A stretch of DNA of 44,824 nucleotides from a virus (taxonomy: Duplodnaviria; Heunggongvirae; Uroviricota; Caudoviricetes), in IMG/VR virus record IMGVR_UViG_2778261573_000004, positions 1-44,824 of that record. The stretch is one strand, 5' to 3'. Below the pieces are notes generated by a model. The model was not told the origin of the DNA. It saw only the letters and a list, made by a program, of their open reading frames with translations, and searched no databases. Below are positions 1 to 44,824 of the stretch, piece by piece. Made by a program: the position numbers and the translations under genes. Within the stretch, counting starts at the first letter, position 1; every line of letters begins with the position of its first letter.

Positions 1-549
1 TCAGCTAGCTGGAAACTTTTTATACAGAGTTGAGAGCCCTACTCCATACGTTTTTGATACGCTTTGTCGTGATTCACCGGTTGCCATCCGCTCCCCCATT
101 TCCCGCCATTGCTCATCCGTGAACTTAGGCCTGCGACCACCAACTCGCCCTTTTGCCCTGGCTACGGCCAGCCCTGCTAAGGTACGTTCGCTATTAAGAT
201 CAGATTCATATTGTGCTGCGGAAAGGATGTTACGAAAGTTATAGCGGCCGCTGGCTGTTTTGAGATCCACGCCATCGGTAATACTGCGGAAGTTGATACC
301 CTTTTCCTGTAACTGCTGGAACATCAACAGCGCATGCAGAACGTTGCGGCCTATCCTGTCCAGCTTCCAGACCACCAGTTCATCCCCCGGCTGCATAGTG
401 GCGATCAGCCGTTTTAGAACCGGCCGATTCGATTTCCTCCCGCTGGCATGCTCTTCAAAAATTTTCTCACAACCCGCTGACTTGAGCGCCGTTAGTTGCA
501 ATTCAGTGTCCTGGTGGTTTGTTGATACTCGGGCATAACCGTAAATCAT
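1..549 (-). CDS. pin: Serine recombinase, DNA invertase (Pin/Gin/Hin/Cin family)
   Basis: Protein from MIYGYARVSTNHQDTELQ has the resolvase-type N-terminal catalytic Ser motif and a C-terminal HTH; ATG at 549-547 with RBS AGGAGA upstream; lies next to an invertible tail-fibre segment. The longer ORF to 708 is rejected as an upstream extension. Confidence 0.9.
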   Translation of the reverse strand: MIYGYARVSTNHQDTELQLTALKSAGCEKIFEEHASGRKSNRPVLKRLIATMQPGDELVVWKLDRIGRNVLHALLMFQQLQEKGINFRSITDGVDLKTASGRYNFRNILSAAQYESDLNSERTLAGLAVARAKGRVGGRRPKFTDEQWREMGERMATGESRQSVSKTYGVGLSTLYKKFPAS

Positions 550-608
550 GGGATTTCTCCTGTTATGAAAACAGGAGAAACGGCGAAGCATCACCAGATT
601 TTTGATGG

Positions 609-634
609 TTATAAAAAAGGTTGGTTTGGGAGAA
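609..634. other. Invertase crossover site, left copy (cix/gix-like)
   Basis: Reverse complement reads TTCTCCCAAACCAACC..., sharing 14 identical nt (TTCTCCCAAACCAA) in inverted orientation with the site at 2554-2579; both sites encode the same peptide LGLGE in the two alternative fibre reading frames. Confidence 0.75.
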
Positions 635-1075
635 GCGGCAAAACGAAATGTGGGCAACGGGGAAAACCAAATCCCTGATATGTCTTTCTGGACGGTTACT
701 GGTGGCAATGGAAATTTTGTGATTCGTCAACCTGACGGGCTAATCATTCAGATGGTTACTGTAAGTATAAGCGGTCCAGTGGCGATGAATGGAATGACTG
801 ATAATGCTTATGCCATTACAGGTTCTAATAAGTCTTATATTGCCACAGCCACATTGCCCTTTGTATTTCCTAATAAGGTGCTGGGCGTTATCCCTCTGGT
901 ATCAACAACAGCTTATGGTGGTGTATCCAGTAATATTACAGGTTCATACGCGACGGCGGTTTGTTCTTTTGCCGCTGTTAGGGGGAATAATACGATTGTG
1001 TTCAAAGTCGACAAACCACTGAATGCAGCCTTTCCTTCAGATACCAGCGTCTCAGCGTTAATCATTGGACGGTAA
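621..1075 (+). CDS. Alternative tail-fibre C-terminal variable segment (silent orientation, expressed only after inversion)
   Basis: ORF 602-1075 has no independent start context but begins with the peptide KVGLGE encoded by the crossover site; after inversion it would fuse in frame to the constant N-terminal part of the fibre gene at 2580-2850. Confidence 0.6.
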
Positions 1076-1077
1076 GA

Positions 1078-1521
1078 ATGAACTCAGTATTCTTTTCACC
1101 CGCAAGTAAAAGTTTTTATCTGCAAGAATTGTTTCCAGAATATGAGGATGCGGGAACGCTTCCTGATGATGTTATTGAAATTACCAGAGAAACATATGAG
1201 CAATTTCTTGGGCTGCATCCAGAAGGGAAAGAAATTGGCGCTGACAGTTCAGGACGGCCAATATGGATTAATTCCCCGCCGCCTTCAAAAGAGGATGAGA
1301 TGCTGGCGGCTGAAATGAAAAAGATATCTTTGGTTTCAGAAGTCAATACCTACATCAATACCCATCAGTGGCCTGGCAAAGCTGCTATTGGTCGTCTGAA
1401 AGGTTACGAGCTGGAACAATATAATTTATGGCTGGATTATCTGGACGCACTGGAACTGGTTGATACCTCCAGTGCTCCAGATATTGAATGGCCTACGCCT
1501 CCGGTAGTTCAGGCCAGATGA
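1078..1521 (+). CDS. Tail fibre assembly chaperone, alternative copy (Tfa/U-prime-like)
   Basis: 147 aa ending in the conserved Tfa-type C-terminus (IEWPTPP); immediately follows the alternative fibre segment inside the invertible region. Confidence 0.65.
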   Translation: MNSVFFSPASKSFYLQELFPEYEDAGTLPDDVIEITRETYEQFLGLHPEGKEIGADSSGRPIWINSPPPSKEDEMLAAEMKKISLVSEVNTYINTHQWPGKAAIGRLKGYELEQYNLWLDYLDALELVDTSSAPDIEWPTPPVVQAR

Positions 1522-2098
1522 CATCCGACGCGGTGCTGGTATCTGTTGCAGTCACCGCGTCAATGTAATCCAGCACAGCGTTAAGCCGGGTTGTTTCTGC
1601 CTGCGTCAGCTTCCGCCCGGCCTGCAATTTCAGCTGAATCAGACTAATGGAAGCCATAGCAGCATCAATCAGTGACTGGCGCCGTACTTCTGCCGCGTCT
1701 ACTGCGGCGTTATGCTGTGCCTCAGTATCGGTCACCCATTTCTCACCATCCCATTTATCGTATGACGTTAACGGGGCGATAGTGGTTGTATTTTCAGGGT
1801 AATCACCCGGAACTGTGATTTCTTTTGATTCTCCTGTTTCGGTGCTATAGACGATTTCACCGCGATGGTCTGGCACATATTCCCATGAGTTAAAATCTGC
1901 AGAACGGCAAATTGCATAACCAGCTTTATATGAGCCAGGAGCATCTAAACAGGAACATGCCGGGATACCGACACCCACAGCAAGATATTCAGTTGATGTG
2001 GAAATATATTCCCGTGTTTCACCATCATAATTATAAACGGTAATGTCTCCGGCCTTTGTGGCGATGAGTTCATTATTTAATACAGCTTTACTTATCAT
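1493..2098 (-). CDS. Tail fibre assembly chaperone (Tfa/U-like)
   Basis: 201 aa, C-terminal VIWPELPEA motif typical of tail fibre assembly proteins; overlaps the fibre gene stop by 4 nt; inside the invertible segment. Confidence 0.75.
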   Translation of the reverse strand: MISKAVLNNELIATKAGDITVYNYDGETREYISTSTEYLAVGVGIPACSCLDAPGSYKAGYAICRSADFNSWEYVPDHRGEIVYSTETGESKEITVPGDYPENTTTIAPLTSYDKWDGEKWVTDTEAQHNAAVDAAEVRRQSLIDAAMASISLIQLKLQAGRKLTQAETTRLNAVLDYIDAVTATDTSTASDVIWPELPEA

Positions 2099-2850
2099 GC
2101 AGCCCTCACAATATAATTAAAGGCGATGTTACGGGAGCGGGTTTCAGATGCTGTGCGAACTGAGCGAGATGCGTCGAATGTCCAGTTATAAGCGCCATAA
2201 CCCTCAATAATTTCGGTTTCCTTTAGACCTGTAGATAATACTTGCCCATGTTGACTAAATGGCCCTGAACTAAGTACGTCTCTAAAAAGCTGGGTACGCC
2301 CAAAAGAACCAACAATATTCTGAATTGCATCATTCTGTGCAGATAATAAGTTACGACCAGAGTCAATCCCGCGCCCATCATCCCAGCCACGAATAAATTC
2401 ACCGCGTAAATCTGGTAATTTTAATGTTGGGTAAGCCTTTGCCAGATTTGGGTACTTTTCAGAAGAAAATACTGCTCCGTTACATTTTAGCCACCCCGTT
2501 GGCGGAGTGGCTGAAGGCCACGGAACAGGCACACCAACCGGTAATGCAGAGCCTTCTCCCAAACCAAGGTTTGTGAGAGCCGTAGAAATCGCCGCTGCAC
2601 CATCTGATTTGATATCGGCAAATGGGTTTGCACGGCTCAGTGTGAGTTTTTGAATGGCTTTTAAAACCTGAGTCATATCGTTAATGTCGAGCGCCAATCC
2701 TGCTGACTCTACGATATGCGCTAACTCTTCCTGCATGGCATTAAACGCTGCTGCCCGCAGCCTCGTTGCGGCAATACCACCAGCAACACTTCCATCAGTA
2801 TATTTGCCATCCTGCGTTGCAGTGGCTTCGACTTGCCCGATTCGGAGCAT
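2095..2850 (-). CDS. Tail fibre protein, constant N-terminus plus currently expressed variable C-terminus with tail-collar-like motif
   Basis: 251 aa; the crossover site at 2554-2579 falls inside the gene (peptide NLGLGE); C-terminal part carries WLKCNGAVFSSEKYPNLAKAY...LPDLRGEFIRGWDDGRGID, resembling phage tail-collar fibre domains. Confidence 0.8.
   Translation of the reverse strand: MLRIGQVEATATQDGKYTDGSVAGGIAATRLRAAAFNAMQEELAHIVESAGLALDINDMTQVLKAIQKLTLSRANPFADIKSDGAAAISTALTNLGLGEGSALPVGVPVPWPSATPPTGWLKCNGAVFSSEKYPNLAKAYPTLKLPDLRGEFIRGWDDGRGIDSGRNLLSAQNDAIQNIVGSFGRTQLFRDVLSSGPFSQHGQVLSTGLKETEIIEGYGAYNWTFDASRSVRTASETRSRNIAFNYIVRAA
2554..2579. other. Invertase crossover site, right copy (cix/gix-like)
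   Basis: TTCTCCCAAACCAAGGTTTGTGAGAG, a 12-2-12 imperfect palindrome with central AA, typical of hix/gix/cix sites; inverted copy of the 609-634 site. Confidence 0.75.
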
Positions 2851-2901
2851 AGTTAATCCTCACTTAGTGTTAAGCGATAAAATCAGAGGGGGAAATATCA
2901 G

Positions 2902-3495
2902 TTATGAATAATTGAAAATGATGTTCAGATGGGATGGGGCAATTTTGTTGATTGAACACTCCAGTTGTTTATTGCCCCACGATGCGAGCGGATCTCCGCA
3001 GTAGGACGCGCCAGCAAGCGAATACTTGATCGTTGTTTGTGGCGCATTTATCCGCCAGGTAAATGGCCACTCGTCACCGTTAAGCGCATCACCGCATACT
3101 GACATGCCACTCATAGCGGGCCGGAACTGTGTGATAGTGATGGTATAACCAAGAGCTGCAGCCACCCGGATGTAATAATCGCGGTTCAGGCCGCCGGTGC
3201 TGATTAACTTTGCCACCACGGCGCGCTGGCGATCGCTGACGCCACCGGATTCACCAATCGCACAATCATCTGGTAACCCCAGAGAGCTTTCCCATTCTGA
3301 CAACATTACCGTCGCTGTAGGGGGAAAAGCACCAGTAATCAGGCTTTGCGCATCGTTGTCAGAACGCTGAAACGCGCTGCCCAGTGCCCGTAATACCGCA
3401 GCCTGTACCGTTCTTTGCGACCGGGGCCACGCCCTGCCCGTCGGTAGCAGCGCACCAAGCGCACCGGCATAATCATTTTTTGAAAAGAGGCTCAT
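2902..3495 (-). CDS. Tail protein, Mu gp48-like (DUF2313-like)
   Basis: 197 aa ORF between baseplate J and the tail fibre, the position of Mu gp48; 4-nt overlap with the upstream gene. Family assignment is from memory of this gene order and is not verified. Confidence 0.55.
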   Translation of the reverse strand: MSLFSKNDYAGALGALLPTGRAWPRSQRTVQAAVLRALGSAFQRSDNDAQSLITGAFPPTATVMLSEWESSLGLPDDCAIGESGGVSDRQRAVVAKLISTGGLNRDYYIRVAAALGYTITITQFRPAMSGMSVCGDALNGDEWPFTWRINAPQTTIKYSLAGASYCGDPLASWGNKQLECSINKIAPSHLNIIFNYS

Positions 3496-4634
3496 ACAAA
3501 ATTCACCCCGCCAAGCACCGGAATTTCGCCAACAGCAAAGGTGATATTGGCCGTCGGAGAGTTAAGAATATAGCCCGTCGTGCCGCTAACACCGCCGATA
3601 CTCCCGTTAATATCAGAGAGGTAAACTTTCCCAGAACCATCAGGGTTAGCTTCATCAAAAAACAGCGCCGTCAGCGCGTCTTTTATCCCCTGAACTGTGG
3701 TGCTGTCGGCATTTTTGATCCCAGAGATTTCAATATTGATGACTTTCTTGATCGGGGAACATACGAAAACAATGGCAGTGTCTGTCTGCTGCGGATAGAT
3801 GTGGTCGGCGACAGCGAGCTGGTCTCCGGTGGCTTTAACAGCCCCCCAGTCCTCAAGTTGGGATATTCCGTCGGTACCGACCGGAAACCCACCATTGTCA
3901 TTCCGATCACACATGATATACACGCCAACGGTCCCGGCCCCGTTCAGACGCCGCTTTACCCACGCGCGGGTGACGCCCGAAACCTCAAGCGCCCATTTTT
4001 TATAATCGGCGTCGCTTCCACCCTGAGGCGGATTCTGCCATGCCAGCAAGCCACGACTGCGAAAATCCTCTTCCGTTTCAATATCGGCTCCGCCGGTCGC
4101 AGCGGACAGTAACGTTACCTGTGGATCCACGCCAGCAATATTCGCGTCCAGGGTCATTATGGTCCCGGCATCAGCGTTACCGCGCGCGCCTCCACCCGTT
4201 ACATCACTGGTAATATCCGGCAGTATGGCCGTCACCGCGACGATACCAAATCCATCTGCCTGAATTTTAAGATCTGCATCCGTCCGGTACTGGTATCCGT
4301 CCCCGCGGTTAATGATCGAGCCAACAGGGATAATACAGTCAACACTGCCACTAGCCTGTACCGCAGGCGACTTCGCCGCTGCAGCTGGTTTTCTGAATAC
4401 CTGCTTAAGGGCCATCCACCCGGCGAGATACTCATCGGTAGAGGTAAACGGGTTTGTCTGCAGGGCAATATAGTCAAGGTAGGCGTAATGCAGATGCCCC
4501 ATCCCCGCATCCATGTCAGCCAGTACCTTCAGGTTCGCGAAGCGCAGGAGCGCACCAACATCCTCAAGCTCCGCCTGCATAAATTTCCGGTTTCCGTCGC
4601 GGAGTTCGCTCAGCGTCGGTCGTTTAAACGGCAT
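3492..4634 (-). CDS. Baseplate J-like protein (Mu gp47-like)
   Basis: Start taken at MPFKRPTLSEL (ATG 4634-4632), directly after the stop of the upstream gene; size and position match baseplate J. The 5-prime ORF extension to 4772 is rejected. Confidence 0.75.
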   Translation of the reverse strand: MPFKRPTLSELRDGNRKFMQAELEDVGALLRFANLKVLADMDAGMGHLHYAYLDYIALQTNPFTSTDEYLAGWMALKQVFRKPAAAAKSPAVQASGSVDCIIPVGSIINRGDGYQYRTDADLKIQADGFGIVAVTAILPDITSDVTGGGARGNADAGTIMTLDANIAGVDPQVTLLSAATGGADIETEEDFRSRGLLAWQNPPQGGSDADYKKWALEVSGVTRAWVKRRLNGAGTVGVYIMCDRNDNGGFPVGTDGISQLEDWGAVKATGDQLAVADHIYPQQTDTAIVFVCSPIKKVINIEISGIKNADSTTVQGIKDALTALFFDEANPDGSGKVYLSDINGSIGGVSGTTGYILNSPTANITFAVGEIPVLGGVNFV

Positions 4635-4635
4635 A

Positions 4636-5073
4636 TTAACGTTGCTCCCATATCCAGTAAAACCTGAATTCCTGCCAGTCCTTCCCCGGTGCCTGATAGC
4701 GGATAATGAGATTGAGCCGGTCAGGCAGGACGATCCTTGCAACAGGAATAACCTCGCTGACAACGCCATCAACCTTTAACCAGTTGAGCGCTTCACTCGA
4801 GTATTCCTCCGCTTTTTTTGCTACATCCGGGGTCAGTTTTTTCCGCCGTAGCAGCCACAGCCGGGATCCCAGTTGGGATTCCTCCCCGGAATCCCCCCAC
4901 CAGCCGCGGCGATCGCTATCCTCATAATTATCGTCAGCGCGCGCCAGCCTGTCGGTAAACAGGCTGTCCAGTATTGCAGTCTGTAAATCGTTCCCCGTGG
5001 TGAGTTCACCCAGCCCTTTCTGCCAGTCAGCAAACATCTCATCCACATTCCAGAATGAAGCGATGTCACTCAT
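4636..5073 (-). CDS. Baseplate protein, GP46 family (Mu gp46-like)
   Basis: 145 aa, conserved order between the gp45-like and gp47-like genes; overlapping start/stop with neighbours. Confidence 0.65.
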   Translation of the reverse strand: MSDIASFWNVDEMFADWQKGLGELTTGNDLQTAILDSLFTDRLARADDNYEDSDRRGWWGDSGEESQLGSRLWLLRRKKLTPDVAKKAEEYSSEALNWLKVDGVVSEVIPVARIVLPDRLNLIIRYQAPGKDWQEFRFYWIWEQR

Positions 5074-5654
5074 GTCACCTGATCCTCTGTTTTTTGGCTG
5101 CGGATATTGTCATTGCCACTCTGGGCATTTTTAACCACATGATCATGGTCATTATGTGCATCCCGCAGCTCTTTCAGTGTTCGGGTATTGGTTTCACAGT
5201 TATCAACAATGTCACCCGTGCACCTCAGGATCGGGGTATTTGCAAGGATCCCCTGGCTGGCATTGATGGTCACGTTAGTGGCGTTATTGACCTCAACATT
5301 CTGGCCCTTTGCATCCAGGAAGATCCCCTTCTCCGTCAGGAGAATATTAAGGCCCCACTGGTTATACATGACCGTTTCGCCCGCTTTCAGGCCTGTATGA
5401 CGGAACCCCTGATGGTTGGACGCAATTACCACCGCGCTGGAACGATCACCGCCAATAAAAGCCAGAACCACGTCAGTCCCTGACGGCAGGCCGGATGAAA
5501 AGCCAAATTCTGCCATCCGCGGAGCGCTGGCCACCTCCAGCGGAGTCTGGTACTGGATAGACTGCACCACCCCACCATCTTTCATAGCCGTGATCCGGCC
5601 AATCCCCAGCATGCCGGCGATCCTGGTCGCTGCATGTTTAAATAGTTGCTTCAT
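5070..5654 (-). CDS. Baseplate assembly protein V / spike (Mu gp45-like)
   Basis: 194 aa with a Gly/Val-rich beta-rich core; position between the gpD-like and gp46-like genes. Confidence 0.7.
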   Translation of the reverse strand: MKQLFKHAATRIAGMLGIGRITAMKDGGVVQSIQYQTPLEVASAPRMAEFGFSSGLPSGTDVVLAFIGGDRSSAVVIASNHQGFRHTGLKAGETVMYNQWGLNILLTEKGIFLDAKGQNVEVNNATNVTINASQGILANTPILRCTGDIVDNCETNTRTLKELRDAHNDHDHVVKNAQSGNDNIRSQKTEDQVT

Positions 5655-6736
5655 GTATTGAATCCCGCCAGGTTCTGGTAGAAGGCATATGGCTGAACGG
5701 AGAATGCTTCAGGCGGCATCAGCGTCATGCGTGCATGGGTGCCGTAGTCATCGCGCATATAGGTGACTTCTGCCAGTAGCAATTCAGTCTTCGGCAACCG
5801 TAAGGTGGGAAGATCAACGGGGATCAATGTGTTTGGTTCCCACAGTTTCCCGTCTTTATCCCGCCAGGAATCGATGGTTACCGAGAGCTGTTTTGAACGT
5901 CCGTACCGCCGGTTCATTTCCCAGTCGATCGCACTTTGTGCCTGTTGAGTAGCCATCAGGGTACTTTCCACAATCGATATATGTTTTCGGTACCGCATGC
6001 GGGCGGCCTCCGGATCTCTCGCCGTTGCCAGAGTCACAGCGTCATAGGCCGTATCAGGCGAATACCCTGCAATTGGAGAAACGCTCATTGATACACCGAC
6101 ATAATCTGAAAACCTGTCAGCCATCGATTTGCGGTAGTATGCCTGCTCGACATTTACCCCTTCGGCTATCCCACTTGCCGCACGACGTGTTCCCACCCGG
6201 GTCAGTAACAGGTTTCCATCGGGCTGATCGTAGTAAAGCAGAGCAGACCATCTGGCCACCCGATCGATGACTTCTTGCGGAGACTCACCCCAGTTCAGAG
6301 TGAACTGGGGTACCTTCACAAGTTCATCAACATCCGTGGTTACGGTGATGCCGTAGTAGGATGCCAGGCGAGAAGCAATTTCAAGCGCATTACTGGCATT
6401 GATGACGTTGTTAGGCCACTCGGCTGAGCAATCCACCAGGTCCTGACATTTGCTCCTGCCCGTGGCGCGGACCTCATGGCGGGAGCGCGATAGTGCGGGT
6501 TCCCAGTCATCAACATATCCCGTCAGTGTCAGATCATCTCCGATACGAACTTCACAAGACATTCCCTCTTCAACGAGTTGACGATCTTCGTTGCCAGGGA
6601 AGTAATCCATTAGCCCAAGATCGAAATCAGAGGGAAAACGCTCAATACCCCGCGTTACCCGGACAGAATCCCACCCCTCGATGATTTTGCCGTCGACCGT
6701 CAAAGAAACAACATCCAGATCGCTGTCTGCATTCAT
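5651..6736 (-). CDS. Tail protein, phage late control D-like (Mu gp44/P-like)
   Basis: 361 aa; N-terminus MNADSDLDVVSLTVDGKIIEGWDSVRVTRG is typical of gpD/gp44 baseplate hub proteins. Confidence 0.8.
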   Translation of the reverse strand: MNADSDLDVVSLTVDGKIIEGWDSVRVTRGIERFPSDFDLGLMDYFPGNEDRQLVEEGMSCEVRIGDDLTLTGYVDDWEPALSRSRHEVRATGRSKCQDLVDCSAEWPNNVINASNALEIASRLASYYGITVTTDVDELVKVPQFTLNWGESPQEVIDRVARWSALLYYDQPDGNLLLTRVGTRRAASGIAEGVNVEQAYYRKSMADRFSDYVGVSMSVSPIAGYSPDTAYDAVTLATARDPEAARMRYRKHISIVESTLMATQQAQSAIDWEMNRRYGRSKQLSVTIDSWRDKDGKLWEPNTLIPVDLPTLRLPKTELLLAEVTYMRDDYGTHARMTLMPPEAFSVQPYAFYQNLAGFNT

Positions 6737-8136
6737 TGCCTCAGTACCTTCATGGTTGTCGGCATAAACGCCGGATGCGGTACGCGCGCTTCCTGTACCA
6801 GTTCATCTGCACGGGTGGCATCCTGGTATAATCGGTTTGCCAGCGTCAGCGCCGGAAGCGGCTGAGCGGTAGTAACCTGCAGAAGCTCGCTCAGACCAGA
6901 AGCACGCTCACTCATCGTAGAAAGGAATGCCGATCTGACGGCGAGAAGCGCGTTATACATATCATCGTCCGCGCGGTCTCCAGCCAGAACCAGCGCCGTA
7001 TCAAGTTGCACAGAAACTCGTTGAGTTAACTCTTCTGCCTCGTCTGTACTGGCTGGTCTGGAGTCCGCAGCGGCACTGGTCATGGCACCAGTACATAGCA
7101 CAACAATCAGCGTGTTCATGGTCGCCGAAATCGCTTTGCTGCTGTCGGACTGCTGGTACTCCGTGCTGATTGAATTAGCCAGTTTTTCCAGCGCTGTGAT
7201 TCGGTCATTAACGCTGCCGGCGCTGTTAAGAATTGCGTTTACCACGTCGGCGACGCCCTGGACAAACTCATCAGGTGTGTTGGAGCTGCTAAGCTGGCTC
7301 GACCTGTCGGTAACATTTTTCCGGTCCATTACCGACTGGGCTGTTACCTTGTCAGCCAGTGCTCTCTCATCATCCACATCAGCAACTGACGATTTGCCAG
7401 CAACAGCAGAGGAACTACCGCCCACAGAGCCTTTACTGTAACGTCCGTACCGGGTATTCCCGAACGTGGAGTTCAGGACATTGCTGAGATTCGTGACCTG
7501 ACTGATGGTGCTGTCAACCATGTTAGTCCAGAACGTGACCGTGCCTCTGATGGTGTTTATAGCCTGTGTGACACCGCGGATTTCACTCTTAACTCTGGCA
7601 ATCGTGCTCAGCACAGCAGTGCTGACCAGTTTCAGATAGTTGGTTTTCACCGTGGCGCCTGCAACGGTACTGCCCGTGACAGCAAACACTTTAAGCCCTG
7701 ATTCAATTGCCATCAGGGTAAATTCAAATACTCGCCCGTTCTCCATCGAACCGGAAATACGCAAACCATTCTCAGGGATGGAAACCGTTAATTCGCCCAG
7801 TGTCGGATGGACAAGCGTACCGCTACCTTTTTGTTCACAGGCTTCAATCAGTGACTGGCGCTGCGTGATAGCATCGCCGCCGCCGTAAACCTGGCTGTTC
7901 TGGATCAAGAAACCGCGAATAACAAATCGCCGTGTTGCCCGCCCGATATCCTCTATCCAGGCTGTATCACGGTAGGGATATTCATGTACCGCCTGACGTC
8001 GGCCGTGGCTCCCTTCCTCAGCAACAATTGCAAATGGCACACCTCTGAATGAGCTGGGCCGTAACTGCCCCTGCCAGTCATCGCTGGTATCTCCCCCCAA
8101 AAGAGAAGTTATTGCGTCCTGGATAATTGACGGCAT
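6733..8136 (-). CDS. DNA circulation protein (Mu N/gp43-like)
   Basis: 467 aa; start ATG 8136-8134 with RBS GGAGG 4 nt upstream (the ORF track begins one codon earlier at GTG); position after the tape measure gene as in Mu. Confidence 0.7.
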   Translation of the reverse strand: MPSIIQDAITSLLGGDTSDDWQGQLRPSSFRGVPFAIVAEEGSHGRRQAVHEYPYRDTAWIEDIGRATRRFVIRGFLIQNSQVYGGGDAITQRQSLIEACEQKGSGTLVHPTLGELTVSIPENGLRISGSMENGRVFEFTLMAIESGLKVFAVTGSTVAGATVKTNYLKLVSTAVLSTIARVKSEIRGVTQAINTIRGTVTFWTNMVDSTISQVTNLSNVLNSTFGNTRYGRYSKGSVGGSSSAVAGKSSVADVDDERALADKVTAQSVMDRKNVTDRSSQLSSSNTPDEFVQGVADVVNAILNSAGSVNDRITALEKLANSISTEYQQSDSSKAISATMNTLIVVLCTGAMTSAAADSRPASTDEAEELTQRVSVQLDTALVLAGDRADDDMYNALLAVRSAFLSTMSERASGLSELLQVTTAQPLPALTLANRLYQDATRADELVQEARVPHPAFMPTTMKVLRQ

Positions 8137-34366: not shown

Positions 34367-34367
34367 G

Positions 34368-37654: not shown

Positions 37655-37683
37655 TCAAGCCCGCCATCGCGCGGGCTTTTTTA
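37655..37683 (+). terminator. Rho-independent terminator after cI
   Basis: AGCCCGCCATCGCGCGGGCT followed by TTTTTTA. Confidence 0.65.
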
Positions 37684-37754
37684 CGTCCCGAATTCCTTCG
37701 CTGTAAATTTTTAATCGCTTATTAATCAATACGCTAAATAAAACCATTCAACAA

Positions 37755-37796
37755 TTTAGCATTTTGCTATTGCGCATAATTTAGCATCACGCTAAA
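37755..37796. promoter_or_regulatory. OL-like operator cluster downstream of cI
   Basis: Perfect palindrome TTTAGCATCACGCTAAA at 37780-37796 and near-copy TTTAGCATTTTGCTAT at 37755-37770; same consensus as the OR sites. Confidence 0.5.
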
Positions 37797-38214
37797 TTTA
37801 CCCCATCGAAACGAAACATCGACAGCTGAGCGAAGTTAGCCAGCGGCGGACAGCAAGTCGCCTGCTTTTTAACAACATGCAGATTTACAGCGTCAATGAC
37901 CTGTTAAGACCCCTACACGTAAACGTGCTGTATCACTGGGTGCGATCCGGTCGGTGAGAGAGTATCCCCGCGCGAGAGCGAGAACGGCGTGAGAACGGGC
38001 AACACTGGCAGGGAGTTGGCGCTGACCAATACAGGGAATGTTATGGGATGTGGTGAAGGGTTCATGGACGGGAATATGTCGCACGTAAAGCGGCGAGGCC
38101 CGAGGAGCTATTGCCGAAGATAAGTAGGCCGAATCGGGTCGAAATGGGTCTCCCACCTACCACATCGCCAAAGCATTTCTCCCGCATCAGCGGGTAACGA
38201 CAGAGGGTAAGGGG

Positions 38215-38511
38215 ATGATCGACGACATCAAGCGCATCGACTCAATGATAAATGCGCTTCGCAATATGAAACAGGACATCAAGCGTCAGCAGAAACTAAG
38301 TGAAATAAACAGTTTAGACCTGTCGCCGAAGCAAGCTCAAAAGCGCAATGCCGATGCTGACTGGATTGCGATGGAACAGATTAAGCGTCGGCATGAGCTG
38401 CACGCTCTGTCTGTTGAGCTTGGGTTCGCTGAGCGCCGGGAAAGTTATGCTCCATTTGAATTAACTGACGGGTGGCACCGATTCGACCACAAGCCGCGCG
38501 AACCTCAATAG
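38215..38511 (+). CDS. First early-left ORF, basic protein of unknown function (N-like position)
   Basis: 98 aa; RBS GGGTAAGGGG before ATG 38215; lies after a 400-nt untranslated leader from the OL region. Confidence 0.45.
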   Translation: MIDDIKRIDSMINALRNMKQDIKRQQKLSEINSLDLSPKQAQKRNADADWIAMEQIKRRHELHALSVELGFAERRESYAPFELTDGWHRFDHKPREPQ

Positions 38512-38667
38512 CCGCCTAACCAGCGGCTTTTTCATACCTGGAGTCATTTACGAGTGGCTCAAGTTATGACAACCGGCGGCCATCCACCGCCCATTGAAAC
38601 ACTGAATAAATGCGTTGAAGTCTTGTATTAACCGTTCCGTTCGCCGCGATAAGGCCAAGAGGAAATC

Positions 38668-38796
38668 ATGGTAAACCAGCAGCAGATCAGAGAGGCCCAA
38701 CGGCTCGCGTCGTTCGCGGTGCTCCATCGCAATGCTCCGGCGTGGGAAGAAGCAAAACGCCTTTACGCCGTCGCCATCGGGAGGACTCTTCACTGA
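38668..38796 (+). CDS. Small ORF (42 aa), translationally coupled to the next gene
   Basis: RBS AAGAGGAAA before ATG 38668; stop overlaps the next ATG (TGATG). Confidence 0.3.
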   Translation: MVNQQQIREAQRLASFAVLHRNAPAWEEAKRLYAVAIGRTLH

Positions 38797-38993
38797 TGGA
38801 AACTTTATTCGCACTCGTCCTGACCGTGGCAATGACCAACGGTGATTATCAGGATGTCATTCTCGGCGTTTACGACAGCCAGCAGGAATGCAGCCTGGCA
38901 GCTACAGAGCAGAAAGTGTCAGCTGAGTGCTGGCCGGTAGAAAGCATCATCCGCAACGGCGAGTTCCCGGCGAAATCCATCGCGCAGCAGTAA
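38796..38993 (+). CDS. Small protein with hydrophobic N-terminus (65 aa)
   Basis: METLFALVLTVAMTNGDYQ...; start inferred from coupling with the upstream ORF. Confidence 0.35.
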   Translation: METLFALVLTVAMTNGDYQDVILGVYDSQQECSLAATEQKVSAECWPVESIIRNGEFPAKSIAQQ

Positions 38994-39063
38994 CCACCCT
39001 ATTCAACCGATCGGCCTGGCATTACGCGGGCGGGATCTGCACATCCAAATTTCAGGAGAAACC

Positions 39064-40035
39064 ATGAGCGAAGTAACGGACTTAACTGTCATCGAAATCA
39101 AGCCGGAACAGGCCCCAGTGCTTTACGTAGCGGGCGGCCTTGACGCGTACCTTGAGCAAATCCGCCAGGCTGTAAACGAAGTGCCGGACCTGTCCACGAA
39201 GAAAGGCCGTGACCGTGTTGCCTCTCTGGCAGCGCAGGTGTCCCGCAGCAAGACGGCAATCGAAAAGCCGGGCCGTGAGTACCTGAAGCGCCTGAAAGAG
39301 GCTGTGCGTCCGGCTGAGGCCGAAATTAAGCGATTCGTTGATGCCTGCGACGAGCTGCGCGATGCGACCCGCCGCCCACTCACCGAATGGGAAGCCGAGC
39401 AGGAACGCATTAAGGCTGAAGAAGCCATGAACGCGATGCACGCCGAAGCGCTGGAGATGAACATCAGGTTCGATCAGGAGCTGGCTGCCAAGTTCGAAGC
39501 GGACCACGAAATGGCTCTACTGATGAACAAGGATTTTGACCGTGACCGCGAAGAGCAGCGCCGTCTGGCGGAACAGGCTCAGCGTGAACGTGATGAGCGG
39601 CTGAAACAGGAAGCGGCAGAACAAGCCCGCCGCGATGCCGAAGCGAAGCACAAAGCGGAGATTGAAGCCGCAGCGCGCCGTGAAGCCGAAGAGAAAGCCC
39701 GCGCTGAACTGGCGGAGCGCCAGCGCGTCGAAGCGGAACAGCGTGCAGCTCGCGAGAAGCAGGAAGCGGAAGCCCGGGCGGAACGCGAAAAAGCCGCGGC
39801 GGTTGAAGCCGAGCGCCTGAAGGCCAAACAGGCCGAAGATGCCCGCCTGGCCGAAGAGAAGCGCCTCGCCGATGAGCAGGCAAAGCGTGAAGCTGACGTT
39901 AAGCACCGCAAGACGGTCGGCACCAACATCGTTAACGCGCTCACCAGCCAAACCAGCTTAACCCGCGAGCAGGCTATCGAAGTGCTTACCGCTCTGAAAG
40001 ATGACCTGATCCCCTGCGCGAAAATTCATTACTGA
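39064..40035 (+). CDS. Charged coiled-coil protein with Glu/Arg/Ala-rich low-complexity core
   Basis: 323 aa; RBS GGAGAA before ATG 39064; the central region 39480-39900 is strongly biased (EAERLKAKQAEDARLAEEKR), producing open frames in all six frames. Confidence 0.55.
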   Translation: MSEVTDLTVIEIKPEQAPVLYVAGGLDAYLEQIRQAVNEVPDLSTKKGRDRVASLAAQVSRSKTAIEKPGREYLKRLKEAVRPAEAEIKRFVDACDELRDATRRPLTEWEAEQERIKAEEAMNAMHAEALEMNIRFDQELAAKFEADHEMALLMNKDFDRDREEQRRLAEQAQRERDERLKQEAAEQARRDAEAKHKAEIEAAARREAEEKARAELAERQRVEAEQRAAREKQEAEARAEREKAAAVEAERLKAKQAEDARLAEEKRLADEQAKREADVKHRKTVGTNIVNALTSQTSLTREQAIEVLTALKDDLIPCAKIHY

Positions 40036-40042
40036 GGCAACC

Positions 40043-40327
40043 ATGAACGCATACCTCACTTACGACCGCATCGAAGATCGGCGCTGGGCTGAGCAGCAGA
40101 TCACCGACGAGAAAGAGAAGTGGATCGACGACCGGGCGCAGAAAATCATCGACATGATGCCAAAAGAGCCATCCGGCCTCTTCCACTTCTCGGTCCCGAT
40201 TGACTCCAGCCCATACGAAGGGCTTCGCAGCGATAAAGCTGGCGAGGCCTACAACGATTTCATTTCGGCAGTTGCTTACGCCCAGGCGGAATACGACTGG
40301 GATCACCGTACCGGCTGCCCGTTTTAA
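40043..40327 (+). CDS. Hypothetical early protein
   Basis: 94 aa, tightly packed in the early-left operon. Confidence 0.45.
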   Translation: MNAYLTYDRIEDRRWAEQQITDEKEKWIDDRAQKIIDMMPKEPSGLFHFSVPIDSSPYEGLRSDKAGEAYNDFISAVAYAQAEYDWDHRTGCPF

Positions 40328-40338
40328 GGAGAGAGTTA

Positions 40339-40572
40339 ATGGCCCGCAGAAATTTACTCCACAAATCGAAATTAGCCGACTTTAAGGAGTGGCTCTCGAT
40401 GAACGGAATTCAGTGGAGAGATGGGAAAGGTAGTTACCAGGTGATCCAGGTGAATACGGGATGCGGCTGGACACCGATTTATGACAGCAGCAAAGAGCGA
40501 CGCGAGCATTTCACTATTCAGGATGCTCTCAGGCCTTTGGTAAACAGATTCATCAGAGAGGCTGCAAAATGA
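40339..40572 (+). CDS. Hypothetical early protein
   Basis: 77 aa, RBS AAGGAGAGAG before the ATG; 4-nt overlap with the next gene. Confidence 0.45.
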   Translation: MARRNLLHKSKLADFKEWLSMNGIQWRDGKGSYQVIQVNTGCGWTPIYDSSKERREHFTIQDALRPLVNRFIREAAK

Positions 40573-41072
40573 CAGATTCAAAAACACATTACCGCAAGGC
40601 ATTTGACTCCCCTTACCTCAGCAGCGCCGACATCGTTGAGCCAACGGTGCTGACGATCGCCCGGGCAACGTTAGAAAACGACAAAACAAAAAAATCCAAA
40701 GACGTTTTTAACACTGCTTATTTTGAAGAGCGCGAGCTGCGCCCTGGCGAAAAGCTTAAGCCGATGATTCTGAATGCCACGAACAGCAAGATGCTGAAAA
40801 GCATTACCGGATCCCCCTTCCTTGAGGATTGGGTAGGCGTGAAGGTCACTGTTTACGTCGATAAAAATGTCCGGTTCGGAAAGGAATCGGTTGAAGGTCT
40901 CCGCTTAAGCCCGGCGCGCGTCACAAAGCCGGTGCTTTCGCCGGAGAAAACGCAGGCTTGGAATAACGCTAAGGCCGCCTTCAAGCGCGATGGCAACCTT
41001 GATGCAGTGCTGGCGAGAATGGACATTTCTCCAGAGCATCGCCGCCAGCTTGAGCAGGAGTGTTCATCATGA
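40569..41072 (+). CDS. Hypothetical protein, possible partner of the exonuclease (recombination module)
   Basis: 167 aa immediately upstream of and overlapping the YqaJ-type exonuclease; function inferred from position only. Confidence 0.4.
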   Translation: MTDSKTHYRKAFDSPYLSSADIVEPTVLTIARATLENDKTKKSKDVFNTAYFEERELRPGEKLKPMILNATNSKMLKSITGSPFLEDWVGVKVTVYVDKNVRFGKESVEGLRLSPARVTKPVLSPEKTQAWNNAKAAFKRDGNLDAVLARMDISPEHRRQLEQECSS

Positions 41073-41692
41073 TCTGGCACGACGTCGAGCAAAACGGTGA
41101 AGAGTGGGACGCTCTTCGCCTGGGTAAGGCCACCGCTTCAAACTTCGGCCTGATCATGGCTAACGATGGGAAGGCTTTTGGCGAACCAGCCAAGCGTTAT
41201 GCCCTTCAATTGGCTCTTGAGCAGATTAAGGGGTGCAAGTCTGAATTTGGCTTTTCAAACGAGCACATGGAGCGCGGGCACGAACAGGAGCCAATTGCCC
41301 GCATGCTGTACGAAGAGATGAACTTCGTCGACGTGGATAACGGTGGGTTCTTTGATCACGAAACCTACGGTGACAGCCCAGACGGACTCGTTGGCCAGGA
41401 CGGGCTCGTTGAGATTAAGTCGGTCATTGCCGCCACTCACTACTCCACCCTAACCCGCGGCTCCTTCGATCCGGCATACAGATGGCAACTGGTCGGTCAC
41501 CTTGATTGCTCCGGCAGGGATTGGGTGGACTTCATCAGCTACTGCTCAGACTTCCCGGACGGTAAGCAGCTCATCGTTTATCGCCTTACAGCTGCTGAAT
41601 GTGAAACAGAAATAGCCCGGCTTCGCGCACGCAGAAATGATTTCCTCGAACTTGTTGCGGACACTAAGCGCCGCATACTGGAGCTCGAATGA
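41060..41692 (+). CDS. YqaJ-family viral recombinase exonuclease (lambda Exo-like, PD-(D/E)xK)
   Basis: 210 aa; WDALRLGKATASNFGLIM and GDSPDGLVGQDGLVEIKS match YqaJ/lambda-exonuclease active-site motifs. Confidence 0.8.
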   Translation: MFIMIWHDVEQNGEEWDALRLGKATASNFGLIMANDGKAFGEPAKRYALQLALEQIKGCKSEFGFSNEHMERGHEQEPIARMLYEEMNFVDVDNGGFFDHETYGDSPDGLVGQDGLVEIKSVIAATHYSTLTRGSFDPAYRWQLVGHLDCSGRDWVDFISYCSDFPDGKQLIVYRLTAAECETEIARLRARRNDFLELVADTKRRILELE

Positions 41693-42117
41693 AACGCACC
41701 CCCTTCTATCGCAGGCCCGGGCGAACCGGACAATTCTCCGGCCTCCGTGAGCGCGTTATCTGGATGATTCAGACGCGCGGCCGCCCGGTCACCGGTAGTG
41801 AAATCGCTGAGAAGTTTGGCGTAACGCTCATTGAGTTTAACCGGGTCGCCAACGGGATCACCCGCGGCTCCGGACAGATAGCTCAGATCGTTGAGTCGGA
41901 AAAATGGCTCAACGAGGACGGAATCTGCGACCGGACTTTCGACCTGGTCACGAAGCCGAAGGTTGTGACGCCGCAGGGCAAATCGCGCCTGTTCACCCGG
42001 CGCGCCATTGAGCAATCGCAGGAAGGTAGACGGCAGGAGTGCATAGCCCGTGCCGCCCGCCGTAGCCGCCTGATTGCTCAGGGCCTCTACATCGACGAAA
42101 TGGAGTCCATCCTATGA
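41689..42117 (+). CDS. Hypothetical protein
   Basis: 142 aa; overlapping start/stop with neighbours. Confidence 0.45.
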   Translation: MKRTPFYRRPGRTGQFSGLRERVIWMIQTRGRPVTGSEIAEKFGVTLIEFNRVANGITRGSGQIAQIVESEKWLNEDGICDRTFDLVTKPKVVTPQGKSRLFTRRAIEQSQEGRRQECIARAARRSRLIAQGLYIDEMESIL

Positions 42118-42272
42118 CTCACGCTCACGACGACATCAGGGTTGGCGCGGTGCGCCTTCCCTGGCTCAAAGAGAAAAACGGATGGTTGCTGCCGTGGGGT
42201 GAAGTCGTTACCAACCCACTGAAGGCGCAACGACTGGCTGAAGAACTTAACGAAAAGCAGGTGGCAGCATGA
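42114..42272 (+). CDS. Small ORF (52 aa; below the ORF-track size cut-off)
   Basis: ATG 42114 overlaps the upstream stop; its stop overlaps the Dam ATG (ATGA). Confidence 0.3.
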   Translation: MTHAHDDIRVGAVRLPWLKEKNGWLLPWGEVVTNPLKAQRLAEELNEKQVAA

Positions 42273-43153
42273 GATACGGCTCTGTTTGCAGTGGAGCTGC
42301 GGCGATGCCCATAGAAGAACCGGCGCTGCGCAGCTGGCAGCGCCCGTTCCTTAAATGGGCTGGCGGCAAATATTCGCTGCTGCCGGAACTGGATCGTTTG
42401 ATCCCCGCAGGTAAACGCCTTATTGAGCCTTTTGTGGGTGGCGGCTCGGTGTTCCTTAACTCAGACAAGCACGAACGCTTTCTTCTGGCTGACGTCAACG
42501 CTGACCTGATTAACCTGTATCAGATGCTGGCGGTGGTCCCCGACTCGGTGATCTATGAGGCAATGAAGGCATTCAGGCATCTGAATGATGCCGAAAACTA
42601 CACGGTAATTCGTGAAGCATTCAACGCGCAGCGGCTGGATGCGGTCGAGCGCGCAGCAGCGTTCCTTTACCTCAACCGGCACTGCTTCAACGGGCTGATC
42701 CGTTATAACCTGGACGGTTTTTTTAACGTCGGCTTTGGGAAATATAAAGCGCAATATTTCCCGGAAGAAGAGATCAGGGCATTTAAGCGGAAGGCTCACG
42801 CATGCGTATTCATGAATGCAGGCTTCAGGCGCACGCTCGCGCTGGCAGGTGATGGTGACGTCGTTTACTGCGATCCGCCTTATGAGCCGCTGCCCGGCAC
42901 CGCTGGTTTCACTAACTATGCGGCTGGTGGGTTCTCATGGGATAGCCAGGTAGAACTTACGGAAAGCTGTGTGGCAGCCCACCAGCGGGGGGCAAAAGTG
43001 GTGATCAGCAATTCTACCGCTCCGCGCGTAATTGAACTTTACGAACAGCACGGCTTCACGCTGCACCGCGTCAGTGCTCGCCGGGCTATATCCAGCAAAG
43101 GCAGTACCCGCGAAACAGCGAGTGATGTCGTAGCCACTTTGGGAGTGCAGTGA
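42269..43153 (+). CDS. dam: DNA adenine methyltransferase (Dam/D12 class N6-adenine MTase), orphan
   Basis: FVGGGSVF (AdoMet-binding FxGxG) and DPPY catalytic motif in the correct order; no adjacent restriction endonuclease. Confidence 0.9.
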   Translation: MRYGSVCSGAAAMPIEEPALRSWQRPFLKWAGGKYSLLPELDRLIPAGKRLIEPFVGGGSVFLNSDKHERFLLADVNADLINLYQMLAVVPDSVIYEAMKAFRHLNDAENYTVIREAFNAQRLDAVERAAAFLYLNRHCFNGLIRYNLDGFFNVGFGKYKAQYFPEEEIRAFKRKAHACVFMNAGFRRTLALAGDGDVVYCDPPYEPLPGTAGFTNYAAGGFSWDSQVELTESCVAAHQRGAKVVISNSTAPRVIELYEQHGFTLHRVSARRAISSKGSTRETASDVVATLGVQ

Positions 43154-43395
43154 TGATGAAGCTGATTAATCGCAGTAAGCAATCACCTATTGGTCGCCGC
43201 GCTTGCGATGTTGCGCTGGCGGCTCACTTGCAAACATATGGCGACTATGGGCGAAGCAAGATGAAAGAGACTTATACGGTGAAGGTTGAAGGCGTGAAAG
43301 TCTGGGTGGAGGTGGTGAACCGAAAGGCGAGCTACGTGGCCACAGCGATGACCGGCATGCGCCGTCTCCGCTCCCTGCCCGGGCAGGTTGGTTGA
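43150..43395 (+). CDS. Hypothetical protein
   Basis: 81 aa; overlaps the Dam stop. Confidence 0.4.
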   Translation: MMMKLINRSKQSPIGRRACDVALAAHLQTYGDYGRSKMKETYTVKVEGVKVWVEVVNRKASYVATAMTGMRRLRSLPGQVG

Positions 43396-43436
43396 AAAAG
43401 ATTTTGAATGGCCCGAACGGGCAACTGGAGAGAGCT

Positions 43437-43634
43437 ATGGATGATATTTTGGTAACGTCAGACCTGACCAGTCGCTACAAAATTTCACGCAAAACCCTTT
43501 GGTCATGGCAAAGTGCAGACACAATGCCTCGGGGCTTCGTATGCCCGTTCCCACCCCCTGACTGGCCCGGCAACCCTAACCGCTGGCGCTCTGAGTCAAT
43601 CAAAGAGTGGGAGGATAAAAAGAAGATAAATTAA
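43437..43634 (+). CDS. xis: Excisionase / AlpA-family DNA-binding protein
   Basis: Start at [10 protein letters not shown] with RBS GGAGAG; [15 protein letters not shown]...[13 protein letters not shown] resembles AlpA/Xis HTH proteins; convergent with and overlapping the integrase stop. Confidence 0.6.
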
Positions 43635-44824
43635 CTGAAGGGCTCTCCGATGATCTCTTCAAGATGGCTCTGCCAAACGCGGAGCCAGTGTTTCTGATCA
43701 TCGATATAGTCATGAAGGTTGTAATGCGCCATAACCCCCACCATCTGATGCCCGAGCAGCTTTTCAATTACGTGCGGCGGGCAACCTAACTCAGAGAGAT
43801 TTGTGGCTATCGTCCGCCTCATATCATGAAGCGACCACTCTGCCATACCTGTTCCATTCCAAATAGAACGGGCGTAATTGGATGCCACAGGTGAATGAAC
43901 GGGCGAATCTTTGATCCCGCCATCAATTTTACGTTGTGAAGTCACCAGGTGATTGGTGTTTATTTTCTTGAGGTGATTTCTGACCAGGTTAACGGCGGCG
44001 TCTGAGAGTCCCCTTCTAATATGTACCCGAGTTTTATAACTGCCCGCAGGCACGACCCACTCATTATCATCCAATCGAAACCATGATCTCTCACTAAGTC
44101 GAATCTCAGCCGTACGGCATCCGGTAAGCATAATAAATTTCACCAGGAAAACGGACTCTATCGACATATGGCTTTTCAACCACTGATAGATTTTGCGCAG
44201 ATCGTCATCGTCCATCCTGCGAGTTCTCTTTTTAGGCTTTTGCCCGACATCAGATGGCAGTAATCCCTCGAGTGGGTTTGAGGCGATCACACTTCTGTTA
44301 ACGCAGAACCTAAACGCCCGTTTGCACAGCGAAAGCATGTAATGAGCCATCACCCTGCTTTCTATAGAATCGAAGACGTTGATCCAGTGCATTTTCGCTG
44401 TGTTATCGACTTTGACATTCTTCATCGGTTCGGCGATATGTTTCTCAAACACCTGGCGATAGTAATCGACTTTAACTAGCCCGTTAGCGATACAGTGCCT
44501 TTCAATCCAGTAATTGAACGCTTCGGCAACGGACATCGCTTCCTGTCGGGTCTGCTTATCCAGCTTCACCTGCTCTCGCGGATCCAGTCCCTCAGTTAAC
44601 CAGTTTCTGAATTGTTGGCGACGCTCTCTTGCCTGGGTGATACTCATTGCAGGATAATCACCAACATTGAGTTTTACCGCTTTACCGGCCCAGCGATACC
44701 GATAGAAAAATGATATTTTTCCGGCCTGGCTGATTCTGGCGTTGAGCCCGTGCGAATCAGAAATAATCTCGATATCATCTCTTTTCTTGCCGAGCGCCTT
44801 CCTGAGCTTTGTGTCGGTGATCAT
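43631..44824 (-). CDS. int: Tyrosine integrase (phage integrase family)
   Basis: 397 aa; C-terminal catalytic region with [16 protein letters not shown] and YNLHDY (R-H-R-Y tetrad). The ATG coincides with the last base of the window, so the true N-terminus may lie outside it. Confidence 0.9.

Follow-up and report, generated by a model that had tools for sequence, protein, structure and literature searches.

The window analyzed here, a stretch of 44,824 bp from a tailed-virus record (IMG/VR record IMGVR_UViG_2778261573_000004, positions 1 to 44,824), very probably holds one complete temperate Escherichia coli prophage of modular composition, from which only ~140 and ~200 bp are missing at the ends. 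This prophage, which is apparently intact, is best described as a temperate myovirus of the ΦNP/BZS1 type, in which a head of the lambda family and a Mu-type tail are found together with a phi80 integration module and a fibre switch of the Pin/e14 type. The edges of the window correspond exactly to the stop codon of an invertase gene (position 1) and to the start codon of an integrase gene (position 44824). About 70 genes are present. A minus-strand block, read from ~36.8 kb down to 1.5 kb, carries cro and the replication, nin, Q, lysis, head, tail and fibre genes, and a plus-strand block (36.9-43.6 kb) carries the repressor, N and recombination genes; no tRNA genes were found in the window. 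Protein families were assigned with Pfam and PHROG, Rfam, NCBIfam and PADLOC scans were also applied, and the genes were compared one by one, by tblastn and for each reference locus, with lambda, phi80, Mu, SfV, e14, BZS1 and ΦNP. The gene set was corrected by hand, and four open reading frame (ORF) calls on the opposite strand (12737-13078, 26573-27184, 34575-35072 and 37893-38156) were judged spurious.

Gene content and gene order, which were read directly, are consistent with an assembly of four modules. One module would serve phi80-type integration, with int and xis at one end of the element and the pin invertase gene at the other. A lambdoid early and regulatory region would form another, with an S24 repressor, Cro, flanking operators, N, phi80-type O and P with iterons, nin genes, Q and a late leader. 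The late operon would join a lambda-family set, consisting of a cos-type (cohesive-end) terminase and the gpB, gpC, gpD and gpE head proteins, to a Mu-type contractile tail; the connection would be made by an FII-like protein and a terminator-like protein, after which the gp38-gp48 homologues follow. In the remaining module, a switch of the Pin/e14 type, the invertase would recombine a pair of inverted 26-bp sites, of which one lies within the fibre gene. Inversion would swap the C-terminal, receptor-binding part of the fibre together with its cognate assembly protein and presumably alternates the host range.

The original prediction for this DNA had proposed a mosaic in which head and early genes of lambda type are joined to a Mu-type tail and an inversion switch. 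This architecture was supported: every class named among the lambdoid head genes and among CI, Cro, O, P, nin and Q was found by Pfam, PHROG and tblastn in its expected place and in the stated order, with scores well above chance level (the small terminase by PHROG, and in the place of Nu3 a separate scaffold-like ORF), and the proposal that sheath, tube, baseplate, fibre and invertase genes follow the Mu order was borne out by Pfam and by the positions of tblastn matches on the Mu map.

Packaging and head genes of the lambda family

The genes for packaging and head formation form a block on the minus strand:

21173-21742, minus strand: small terminase (PHROG 57 'terminase small subunit', E value 5e-36)
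19108-21231, minus strand: gpA-type large terminase with ATPase and nuclease domains (PF20454, E value 2e-78; PF05876, E value 3e-64)
18836-19099, minus strand: gpW (PF02831)
17199-18836, minus strand: lambda-family portal, gpB (PF05136, E value 7e-100)
16336-17202, minus strand: S49 protease, gpC, 288 aa (PF01343)
15744-16334, minus strand: acidic scaffold-like ORF, 196 aa (weak match to the C-terminal part of protease PHROGs)
15340-15744, minus strand: decoration protein gpD (PF02924)
14193-15242, minus strand: major capsid protein gpE (PF03864, E value 5e-60)
within the 13447-21742 block, minus strand: ORF without a named family, between the gpE and FII-like genes
13447-13806, minus strand: FII-like head-completion protein (Pfam and PHROG)

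The gpW, portal, protease, gpD and gpE genes stand in the order expected of the lambda family. The scaffold-like ORF has a position analogous to that of Nu3 and a different architecture. The small terminase is 34% identical to a BZS1 protein that the authors of the BZS1 study named Nu1, and the large terminase is 29% identical to lambda A. Compared with A, B, C and E of lambda and phi80, the head block shows 27-38% identity, and compared with BZS1 and ΦNP, 33-92%. Judged by these alignments, the head proteins are of lambda type at the family level and have no close relatives in lambda.

A tail of the Mu type behind a probable tail terminator

Downstream of the head genes, the minus strand encodes a full set of contractile-tail proteins:

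12905-13450, minus strand: probable tail terminator, 181 aa, between the FII-like and gp38 homologue genes (fold comparison)
12704-12901, minus strand: DUF2635 protein, homologue of Mu gp38 (Pfam, E value 2e-19)
11205-12707, minus strand: tail sheath (Phage_sheath_1, E value 7e-22)
10830-11201, minus strand: tail tube (Tail_tube, E value 2e-35)
10550-10828, minus strand: tail assembly chaperone (Phage_TAC_7)
8480-10408, minus strand: tape measure (PHROG 2276, E value 3e-152)
8200-8448, minus strand: small ORF with a match in ΦNP and none in BZS1
6733-8136, minus strand: gp43, DNA_circ_N (Pfam)
5651-6736, minus strand: gp44 (P), GpP domains (Pfam)
5070-5654, minus strand: gp45 (Pfam Gp45)
4636-5073, minus strand: gp46 (Pfam GP46)
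3492-4634, minus strand: gp47, Baseplate_J (Pfam)
2902-3495, minus strand: gp48 (Pfam Gp48)

Homologues of Mu gp38, L, M and gp41-gp48 are thus all present and in Mu order, the tblastn positions on the Mu genome climbing monotonically from 21498 to 30940. For the sheath, identity amounts to 37% with Mu L, 41% with its SfV counterpart and 72% with that of ΦNP. In the baseplate block (2902-8136), where Pfam E values range from 1e-12 to 1e-57, identity is 30-45% with Mu and SfV, 50-68% with BZS1 and 51-80% with ΦNP, and the order of the genes is the same in all of them. Matches between the window and Mu were confined in tblastn to the tail block, to gin and to both lysozymes, which are 39-42% identical to the Mu endolysin. 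Like the window, Mu also has its invertase gene after a segment that swaps a fibre C-terminus and an assembly gene. Unlike the window, it is transposable, and it has head genes of its own and a different gix sequence; neither the A and B transposition genes nor the head genes of Mu were detected in the window by tblastn. Membership of the Mu-like transposable phages (Muvirus) was considered and rejected on the same grounds, integration being by a tyrosine integrase at a fixed attachment (att) site and Mu transposition genes being absent.

At the seam between head and tail, the protein encoded at 12905-13450 gave no Pfam match, and BLASTP comparisons with Mu gp37 and SfV orf9 were empty. An AlphaFold model was built from 24 homologues and reached a predicted local distance difference test (pLDDT) score of 56, which is low confidence. 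With this model, the best named Foldseek matches were tail terminators, and the remaining ones were neck or connector chains of phages; the matches include lambda gpU (E value 6e-7), T5 p142, the R2 pyocin collar, T4 gp15 and one chain from the tail of Mu. The protein is therefore a probable tail terminator that would dock the tail onto the FII-type head-completion protein. In public databases the family is named 'ATP-binding protein' or 'Mu tail sheath family protein', and the fold comparison points to a tail terminator instead. Homologues occur in Escherichia, Klebsiella, Citrobacter, Salmonella, Yersinia, Serratia, Brenneria and Xenorhabdus, and the structural type is therefore common in Enterobacterales.

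The chaperone gene contains a T TTT TTG slippery heptamer (10571-10565, minus strand), from which an open -1 frame runs to 10401 and stops at the start of the tape measure gene. A programmed -1 frameshift is predicted to yield products of 92 aa and, as a fusion, 142 aa, and this extension accounts for the 141 bp that appear non-coding between the chaperone and tape measure genes. Programmed frameshifting is a conserved feature of tail chaperones and typical of functional tails. Residues 393-541 of the tape measure also match endolysin and transglycosylase PHROGs, which suggests that a cell-wall-degrading domain lies in the middle of the protein.

The closest described phages are ΦNP and BZS1

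A near-identity DNA search of 50,697 phage records returned no close relative of the structural half of the window; it matched only pieces of the fibre and tail-fibre assembly (tfa) genes and the capsid gene of BZS1. In 32 of 5,426 complete E. coli genomes, the structural half is present over at least 80% of its length at 97-99% identity. Used as protein queries, the sheath and the portal both returned Citrobacter phage ΦNP and Serratia phage vB_SspM_BZS1 and, more distantly, Acetobacter phage phiAP1. From the small terminase to gp48, the blocks of ΦNP and BZS1 are collinear with the window at 33-93% amino-acid identity; all structural proteins in this interval match ΦNP, and all except the 8200-8448 ORF match BZS1.

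ΦNP (OR565852), a phage of C. rodentium that infects E. coli K-12, resembles the window in its lambda-family head, Mu-type contractile tail and lambdoid early region with Q. Its proteins are 47-93% identical to those of the window (33% for the small terminase), and its DNA is 68-74% identical over about 15 kb. It differs from the window by integration at ssrA with an unrelated integrase, by the lack of an invertase or an invertible fibre segment, and by other early genes and cargo (hicAB, methylases). BZS1 (MT843275) has the same succession of Nu1-like, A, W, portal, protease, scaffold-like, D, E and FII-like genes, followed by homologues of Mup38-Mup48; most of its proteins are 47-92% identical to those of the window, with 34% for the small terminase, 38% for the tape measure and 92% for the major capsid protein. 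In contrast to the window, BZS1 lacks an invertase, has O-acetylases in the fibre region and carries another integrase, att site and early region.

Both phages are myoviruses by electron microscopy, with heads of ~70 nm and tails of ~115-120 nm (PMC7556043, PMC6456863, PMC3072379), and the genome of BZS1 has 12-nt 5' cohesive ends (PMC7556043). The contractile tails seen by microscopy are those of these relatives, the window being known here from its genes; the prophage would be inducible and would release virions with contractile tails and cos ends. The combination of this head and this tail has already been described in ΦNP and BZS1, and the prophage is in line with modular phage evolution as already understood; none of the results challenges current understanding. 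Their value is mainly one of annotation, in that the element, located at the phi80 attachment site, should be labelled as a temperate myovirus of the ΦNP/BZS1 type and not as a relative of lambda, Mu or SfV. It also provides a clean natural case of module exchange among temperate phages, in which the same integration and regulation genes are found with contractile or with non-contractile tails.

Integration at the phi80 attachment site

The flanks of the prophage were examined in a 246-kb Logan contig (SRR6440994_1) that is 100% identical to window positions 1-9850 and 35305-44824. An exact 17-bp direct repeat, ATTTAAGAAAGTGTTCT, is directly visible in this contig 121-137 bp to the left of position 1 and 187-203 bp to the right of position 44824. 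On the left, the repeat shares bases with the 3' end of yciI, and tonB, yciA, yciB and yciC come next; the right repeat is followed by kch and cls. No phage genes were found beyond the window edges in the flanks of this contig. The original prediction had placed int and pin at the two limits of the window and the att junctions just outside, to be recognized by direct repeats and a host gene in the flanks and by the end of phage genes at both edges, and all of this agrees with the contig. The repeat overlaps the annotated core of the phi80 attP site. The prophage of strain MLI104K1 also has both yciI and kch flanks, and its two repeats differ by one mismatch; the yciI/tonB side was seen in Z22-6 and the kch side in UPEC85. 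In these three relatives the prophage is placed between yciI and kch. For phi80 itself, the junctions have been described as kch-int and pinL-tonB (PMC5727415). Combined, the repeats and flanks indicate that a phi80-type tyrosine integrase inserted the prophage at the 3' end of yciI (att80).

Phi80 (NC_021190) shares with the window Int, Xis, DUF4060, O, P and N (100% identical), the pinL product (99%), the att core and the yciI/kch site, and its positions 24499-23813 align with window positions 1-687 at 92.6%. It differs in having a lambda-type siphovirus tail (Z, U, V, G, T, H, M, L, K, I, J), head genes close to those of lambda and a different repressor. Its pinL gene has a premature stop at codon 173, which the window invertase gene does not have, and its resemblance to the window continues for 138 bp beyond the invertase gene, a stretch with one orphan crossover site (23866) and a pseudogene fragment of a fibre collar. 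The truncated pinL, orphan site and collar fragment look like remains of an invertible fibre module, and the intact switch of the window is the counterpart that would explain this orphan remnant in a laboratory phage. The same int-att-pin ends are in fact paired with three virion modules: the lambda-type siphovirus module of phi80, a siphovirus module in UPEC85 and the myovirus module of the window. Whether the pinL remnants are fossils, phi80 having descended from a contractile-tailed relative or swapped structural genes with one, and whether the tandem lysis cassettes of the window mark a very recent swap of this type, we regard as an even bet.

An invertible fibre segment of the Pin type

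The end of the window next to the invertase gene contains the elements of a fibre switch:

1-549, minus strand: serine DNA invertase of the Pin family, 182 aa, intact (Resolvase PF00239, E value 4e-39; HTH_7 PF02796, E value 2e-9)
609-634, minus strand: 26-bp crossover site TTCTCCCAAACCAACCTTTTTTATAA with central AA, just upstream of the invertase gene
621-2567, no single strand: invertible segment, about 1.95 kb between crossover centres, with two fibre C-termini and two assembly genes
626-1075, plus strand: silent alternative fibre C-terminus without a start codon of its own, readable only after inversion
1078-1521, plus strand: alternative tail-fibre assembly protein tfa' (Caudo_TAP, E value 6e-27)
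1493-2098, minus strand: tail-fibre assembly protein in the currently expressed orientation (Caudo_TAP, E value 2e-31)
2095-2850, minus strand: tail fibre, 251 aa, with a constant N-terminus of ~98 aa and a variable C-terminus with a Collar domain (E value 3e-15)
2554-2579, plus strand: 26-bp crossover site TTCTCCCAAACCAAGGTTTGTGAGAG with central AA, inside the fibre gene

The invertase shares 99% identity with phi80 pinL, 55% with e14 PinE and 51% with Mu Gin, and keeps the catalytic RVST motif in an alignment with PinE and Gin. The two crossover sites are inverted relative to each other and have the same central dinucleotide, AA. The invertase-proximal site resembles the e14 site TTCTCCCAAACCAACGTTTATGAAAA, and the site in the fibre gene agrees with the e14 site TTCTCCCAAACCAAGGTTTTCGAGAG at 24 of 26 positions; both are nearly identical to the e14 pair and unlike Mu gix (TTATCCAAAACCTCGGTTTACAGGAA). 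An inversion system resembling the G segment of Mu had been predicted: a switch is present, and it is of the Pin/e14 kind in both its invertase and its pix-like sites rather than of the Mu kind. The DNA of the tfa and fibre parts of the segment is 85-89% identical to e14 tfaE and stfE, and the assembly protein of the current orientation is 90% identical to TfaE. The silent fibre C-terminus matches Pfam Gp53-like_C (E value 4e-5) at 24.6 bits, just below the curated cut-off of 24.9.

When segment 621-2567 was flipped in silico, the fibre gene remained in frame and encoded 245 aa, in which the first ~98 residues were kept and followed by a new C-terminus of 147 residues, and tfa' began two bases past the alternative fibre. 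The flipped junction on the invertase side, used as a synthetic query, was contiguous in 57 complete E. coli genomes. The opposite orientation was seen directly in strain Z22-6, where flanks 99.8% collinear with the window enclose an inverted segment with breakpoints at the crossover sites. These comparisons provide indirect evidence that both orientations of the segment occur in nature. An identical tfa' protein is found in invertible cassettes of P2-like and SfV-like prophages, and the fibre cassette itself is therefore a shared module; such a cassette could serve the engineering of phage host range.

In some SfV/e14-like prophages, the unit formed by fibre C-terminus, tfa, tfa and fibre C-terminus is tandemly duplicated upstream of the invertase gene, which results in four alternative fibre ends and a shufflon-like layout.

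Tandem lysis cassettes and a possible recent joint

Between Q and the head genes, the late operon carries two lysis cassettes, separated by a protease gene and preceded by an STnc100-family RNA:

28372-28568, minus strand: STnc100-family RNA, between Q and the first holin gene (Rfam RF02076, 84.5 bits for a gathering score of 47)
26608-27966, minus strand: lysis cassette B, with P21/HP1-type holin, lysozyme and Rz-like spanin (Pfam; PHROG 214, E value 1e-56)
25131-26033: SDH-type ClpP-like protease gene separating the lysis cassettes (sub-threshold SDH-protease match)
23699-24910, minus strand: lysis cassette A, with LydA-type holin, lysozyme and Rz spanin (Pfam)

The RNA match is bracketed by a promoter-like site with an extended -10 element (28574-28546) and a terminator-like hairpin (28402-28383), and the RNA is probably the Q-modified leader transcript of the late operon. 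A small ORF that overlaps it (28324-28524) is likely spurious.

Positions 1-24944 of the window match the MLI104K1 prophage, which has cassette A in common with it. From 25087 to 44824, much of the window matches the UPEC85 prophage, with 98-99% DNA identity in five pieces that cover 44% of a 20001-44824 query; at the protein level, the SDH protease, O, P, Cro, the repressor, N, Xis and Int are 100% identical. Cassette B, whose lysozyme is 61% identical to the phi80 endolysin, is common to the window and UPEC85. In the latter, inserted at the same kch site, the lysis cassette and SDH protease gene are directly followed by a siphovirus head and tail module. The switch of similarity from MLI104K1 to UPEC85 at ~24944-25087 looks like a recent recombination joint.

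Evaluation of alternative readings

Several observations weigh against the assignment of the window to one intact ΦNP/BZS1-type prophage. The small terminase matches neither Pfam Nu1 nor any NCBIfam model, and no nested in-frame Nu3 was found in the 3' part of the protease gene, the scaffold-like ORF being a separate gene. The terminator assignment was built on a low-confidence model. The comparison with the flanking contig covers the terminal 9.5-9.9 kb only, and the layout with two tandem lysis cassettes, each complete with holin, lysozyme and Rz spanin, is unusual. The inverted segment of Z22-6 is only 86-88% identical to that of the window, so that it documents inversion somewhere in the lineage and not switching in this strain. 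Lastly, induction, virions and inversion are predicted for this prophage from its sequence, and it might instead be cryptic and non-inducible in spite of its intact appearance. Regulatory defects could be concealed by the doubled lysis cassette and by the close spacing of the annotated starts of the repressor and cro genes. Such decay is nevertheless unlikely, as the roughly 28 structural ORFs are all open, most of them with 99-100% identical counterparts in other genomes, the frameshift signal, the origin iterons, the operators, the late leader RNA and the invertase each remain intact, and the close structural relatives ΦNP and BZS1 are viable.

The order of the Mu-type tail genes (gp38-gp48 homologues) together with a lambdoid early region is also found in SfV and its relatives, and e14 of E. 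coli K-12 has a switch of the same layout (fibre N-terminus, alternative C-termini, paired tfa and pin) with an invertase of the same family, near-identical sites and closely related tfaE/stfE DNA. Its YmfQ and JayE are moreover 31-35% identical to the gp48 and gp47 homologues of the window. On this basis the original prediction had spoken of an SfV/e14 type of hybrid, and the prophage might be taken for a member of the SfV-like group (SfV, SfI, SfII, ST64B, phiP27) or for an intact version of e14. We consider this distinctly unlikely. The head of SfV is of the HK97 type (small and large terminase, portal, protease and major head protein) and has no D- or E-type proteins, and no head protein of the window matched SfV in tblastn at an E value below 1e-3; SfV carries gtr O-antigen genes next to att and has no invertase. 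As for e14, this defective 15-kb remnant sits at icd, uses another integrase and lacks head, sheath and tube genes, most tail genes having been lost as well; what it has in common with the window is limited to the switch and baseplate remnants. The tail proteins are 25-50% identical to those of SfV versus 50-93% to those of BZS1 and ΦNP, and these identity values point to a grouping with ΦNP/BZS1, outside the SfV clade. The SfV/e14 label of the prediction is thus imprecise and holds only in part: the tail order shared with Mu and SfV and the e14-type switch stand; the closest described phages are ones it did not name. The window might finally be a composite of two adjacent or nested elements, a lambdoid prophage and a Mu-like one or a tailocin cluster, or else a chimera of assembly. 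The two lysis cassettes and the similarity switch next to them would fit such an origin, as would the finding that coverage of positions 20001-44824 stayed below 80% in all complete E. coli genomes searched. However, there is only one integrase gene, one pair of att sites and one set of terminase and head genes, and the late operon is one unbroken minus-strand unit with all genes co-oriented downstream of Q. The finished MLI104K1 genome has the same layout from invertase to int between yciI and kch, and the independent Logan assembly of SRR6440994 holds both window ends at the spacing of a contiguous prophage. Neither a Mu transposase nor a Mu head gene is present, and a tailocin would lack head genes. 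A composite or chimeric origin is thus very improbable, and a single ΦNP/BZS1-type prophage accounts for the window.

Early region and accessory genes

The regions upstream of the late operon contain the regulatory, replication and recombination genes:

29290-32012, minus strand: Q antiterminator and nin-type genes (RusA, YbcO-like, NinI-like phosphatase, NinE, YbcN; Pfam)
34368-35902, minus strand: replication genes O and P (Phage_rep_O, Phage_lambda_P)
36048-38511, no single strand: immunity region, including a cII-like gene (Pfam Peptidase_S24, HTH_3, YdaT_toxin)
36611-36844, minus strand: Cro-like gene
36886-37638, plus strand: S24 repressor gene, divergent from the Cro-like gene
38215-38511, plus strand: N, 100% identical to phi80 N
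39064-44824, no single strand: leftward early genes for a Gam-like protein, YqaJ exonuclease, Dam methylase, DUF4060 and Xis, then the integrase (Pfam)
43631-44824, minus strand: tyrosine integrase

In the Q region, Pfam matches include Phage_antiter_Q (E value 4e-84), RusA and Metallophos, and the NinI-like phosphatase, NinE and YbcN are 92-100% identical to their phi80 counterparts. O and P are 100% identical to phi80 gp15 and gp14, as are Int, Xis and DUF4060 to the corresponding phi80 proteins. Inside the O gene, at 35524-35596, three or more iterons (CCGTTTTCGGGAAGG...) with 21-bp spacing occupy the place where a replication origin of the lambda/phi80 type would be expected.

Two moron-like ORFs lie on the opposite strand within minus-strand operons, at 22033-22536 (plus strand) and 32381-32818 (plus strand). 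The former matches PHROG 19473, and neither has a match in PADLOC, Pfam or NCBIfam. Among the accessory ORFs, PADLOC and NCBIfam revealed no defence systems and no named families except for the sub-threshold match of the SDH protease at 25131-26033.

The repressor differs from that of phi80 by tblastn. Operator-like repeats with a consensus of about TTTAGCATTTTGCTA are present on both sides of the repressor gene (36875-36940 and 37721-37797): three lie in 36875-36940, and two in 37753-37794 with a related pair at 37721-37797. The left set overlaps the annotated start of the repressor gene at 36886, which makes the ATG at 36961 the probable true start.

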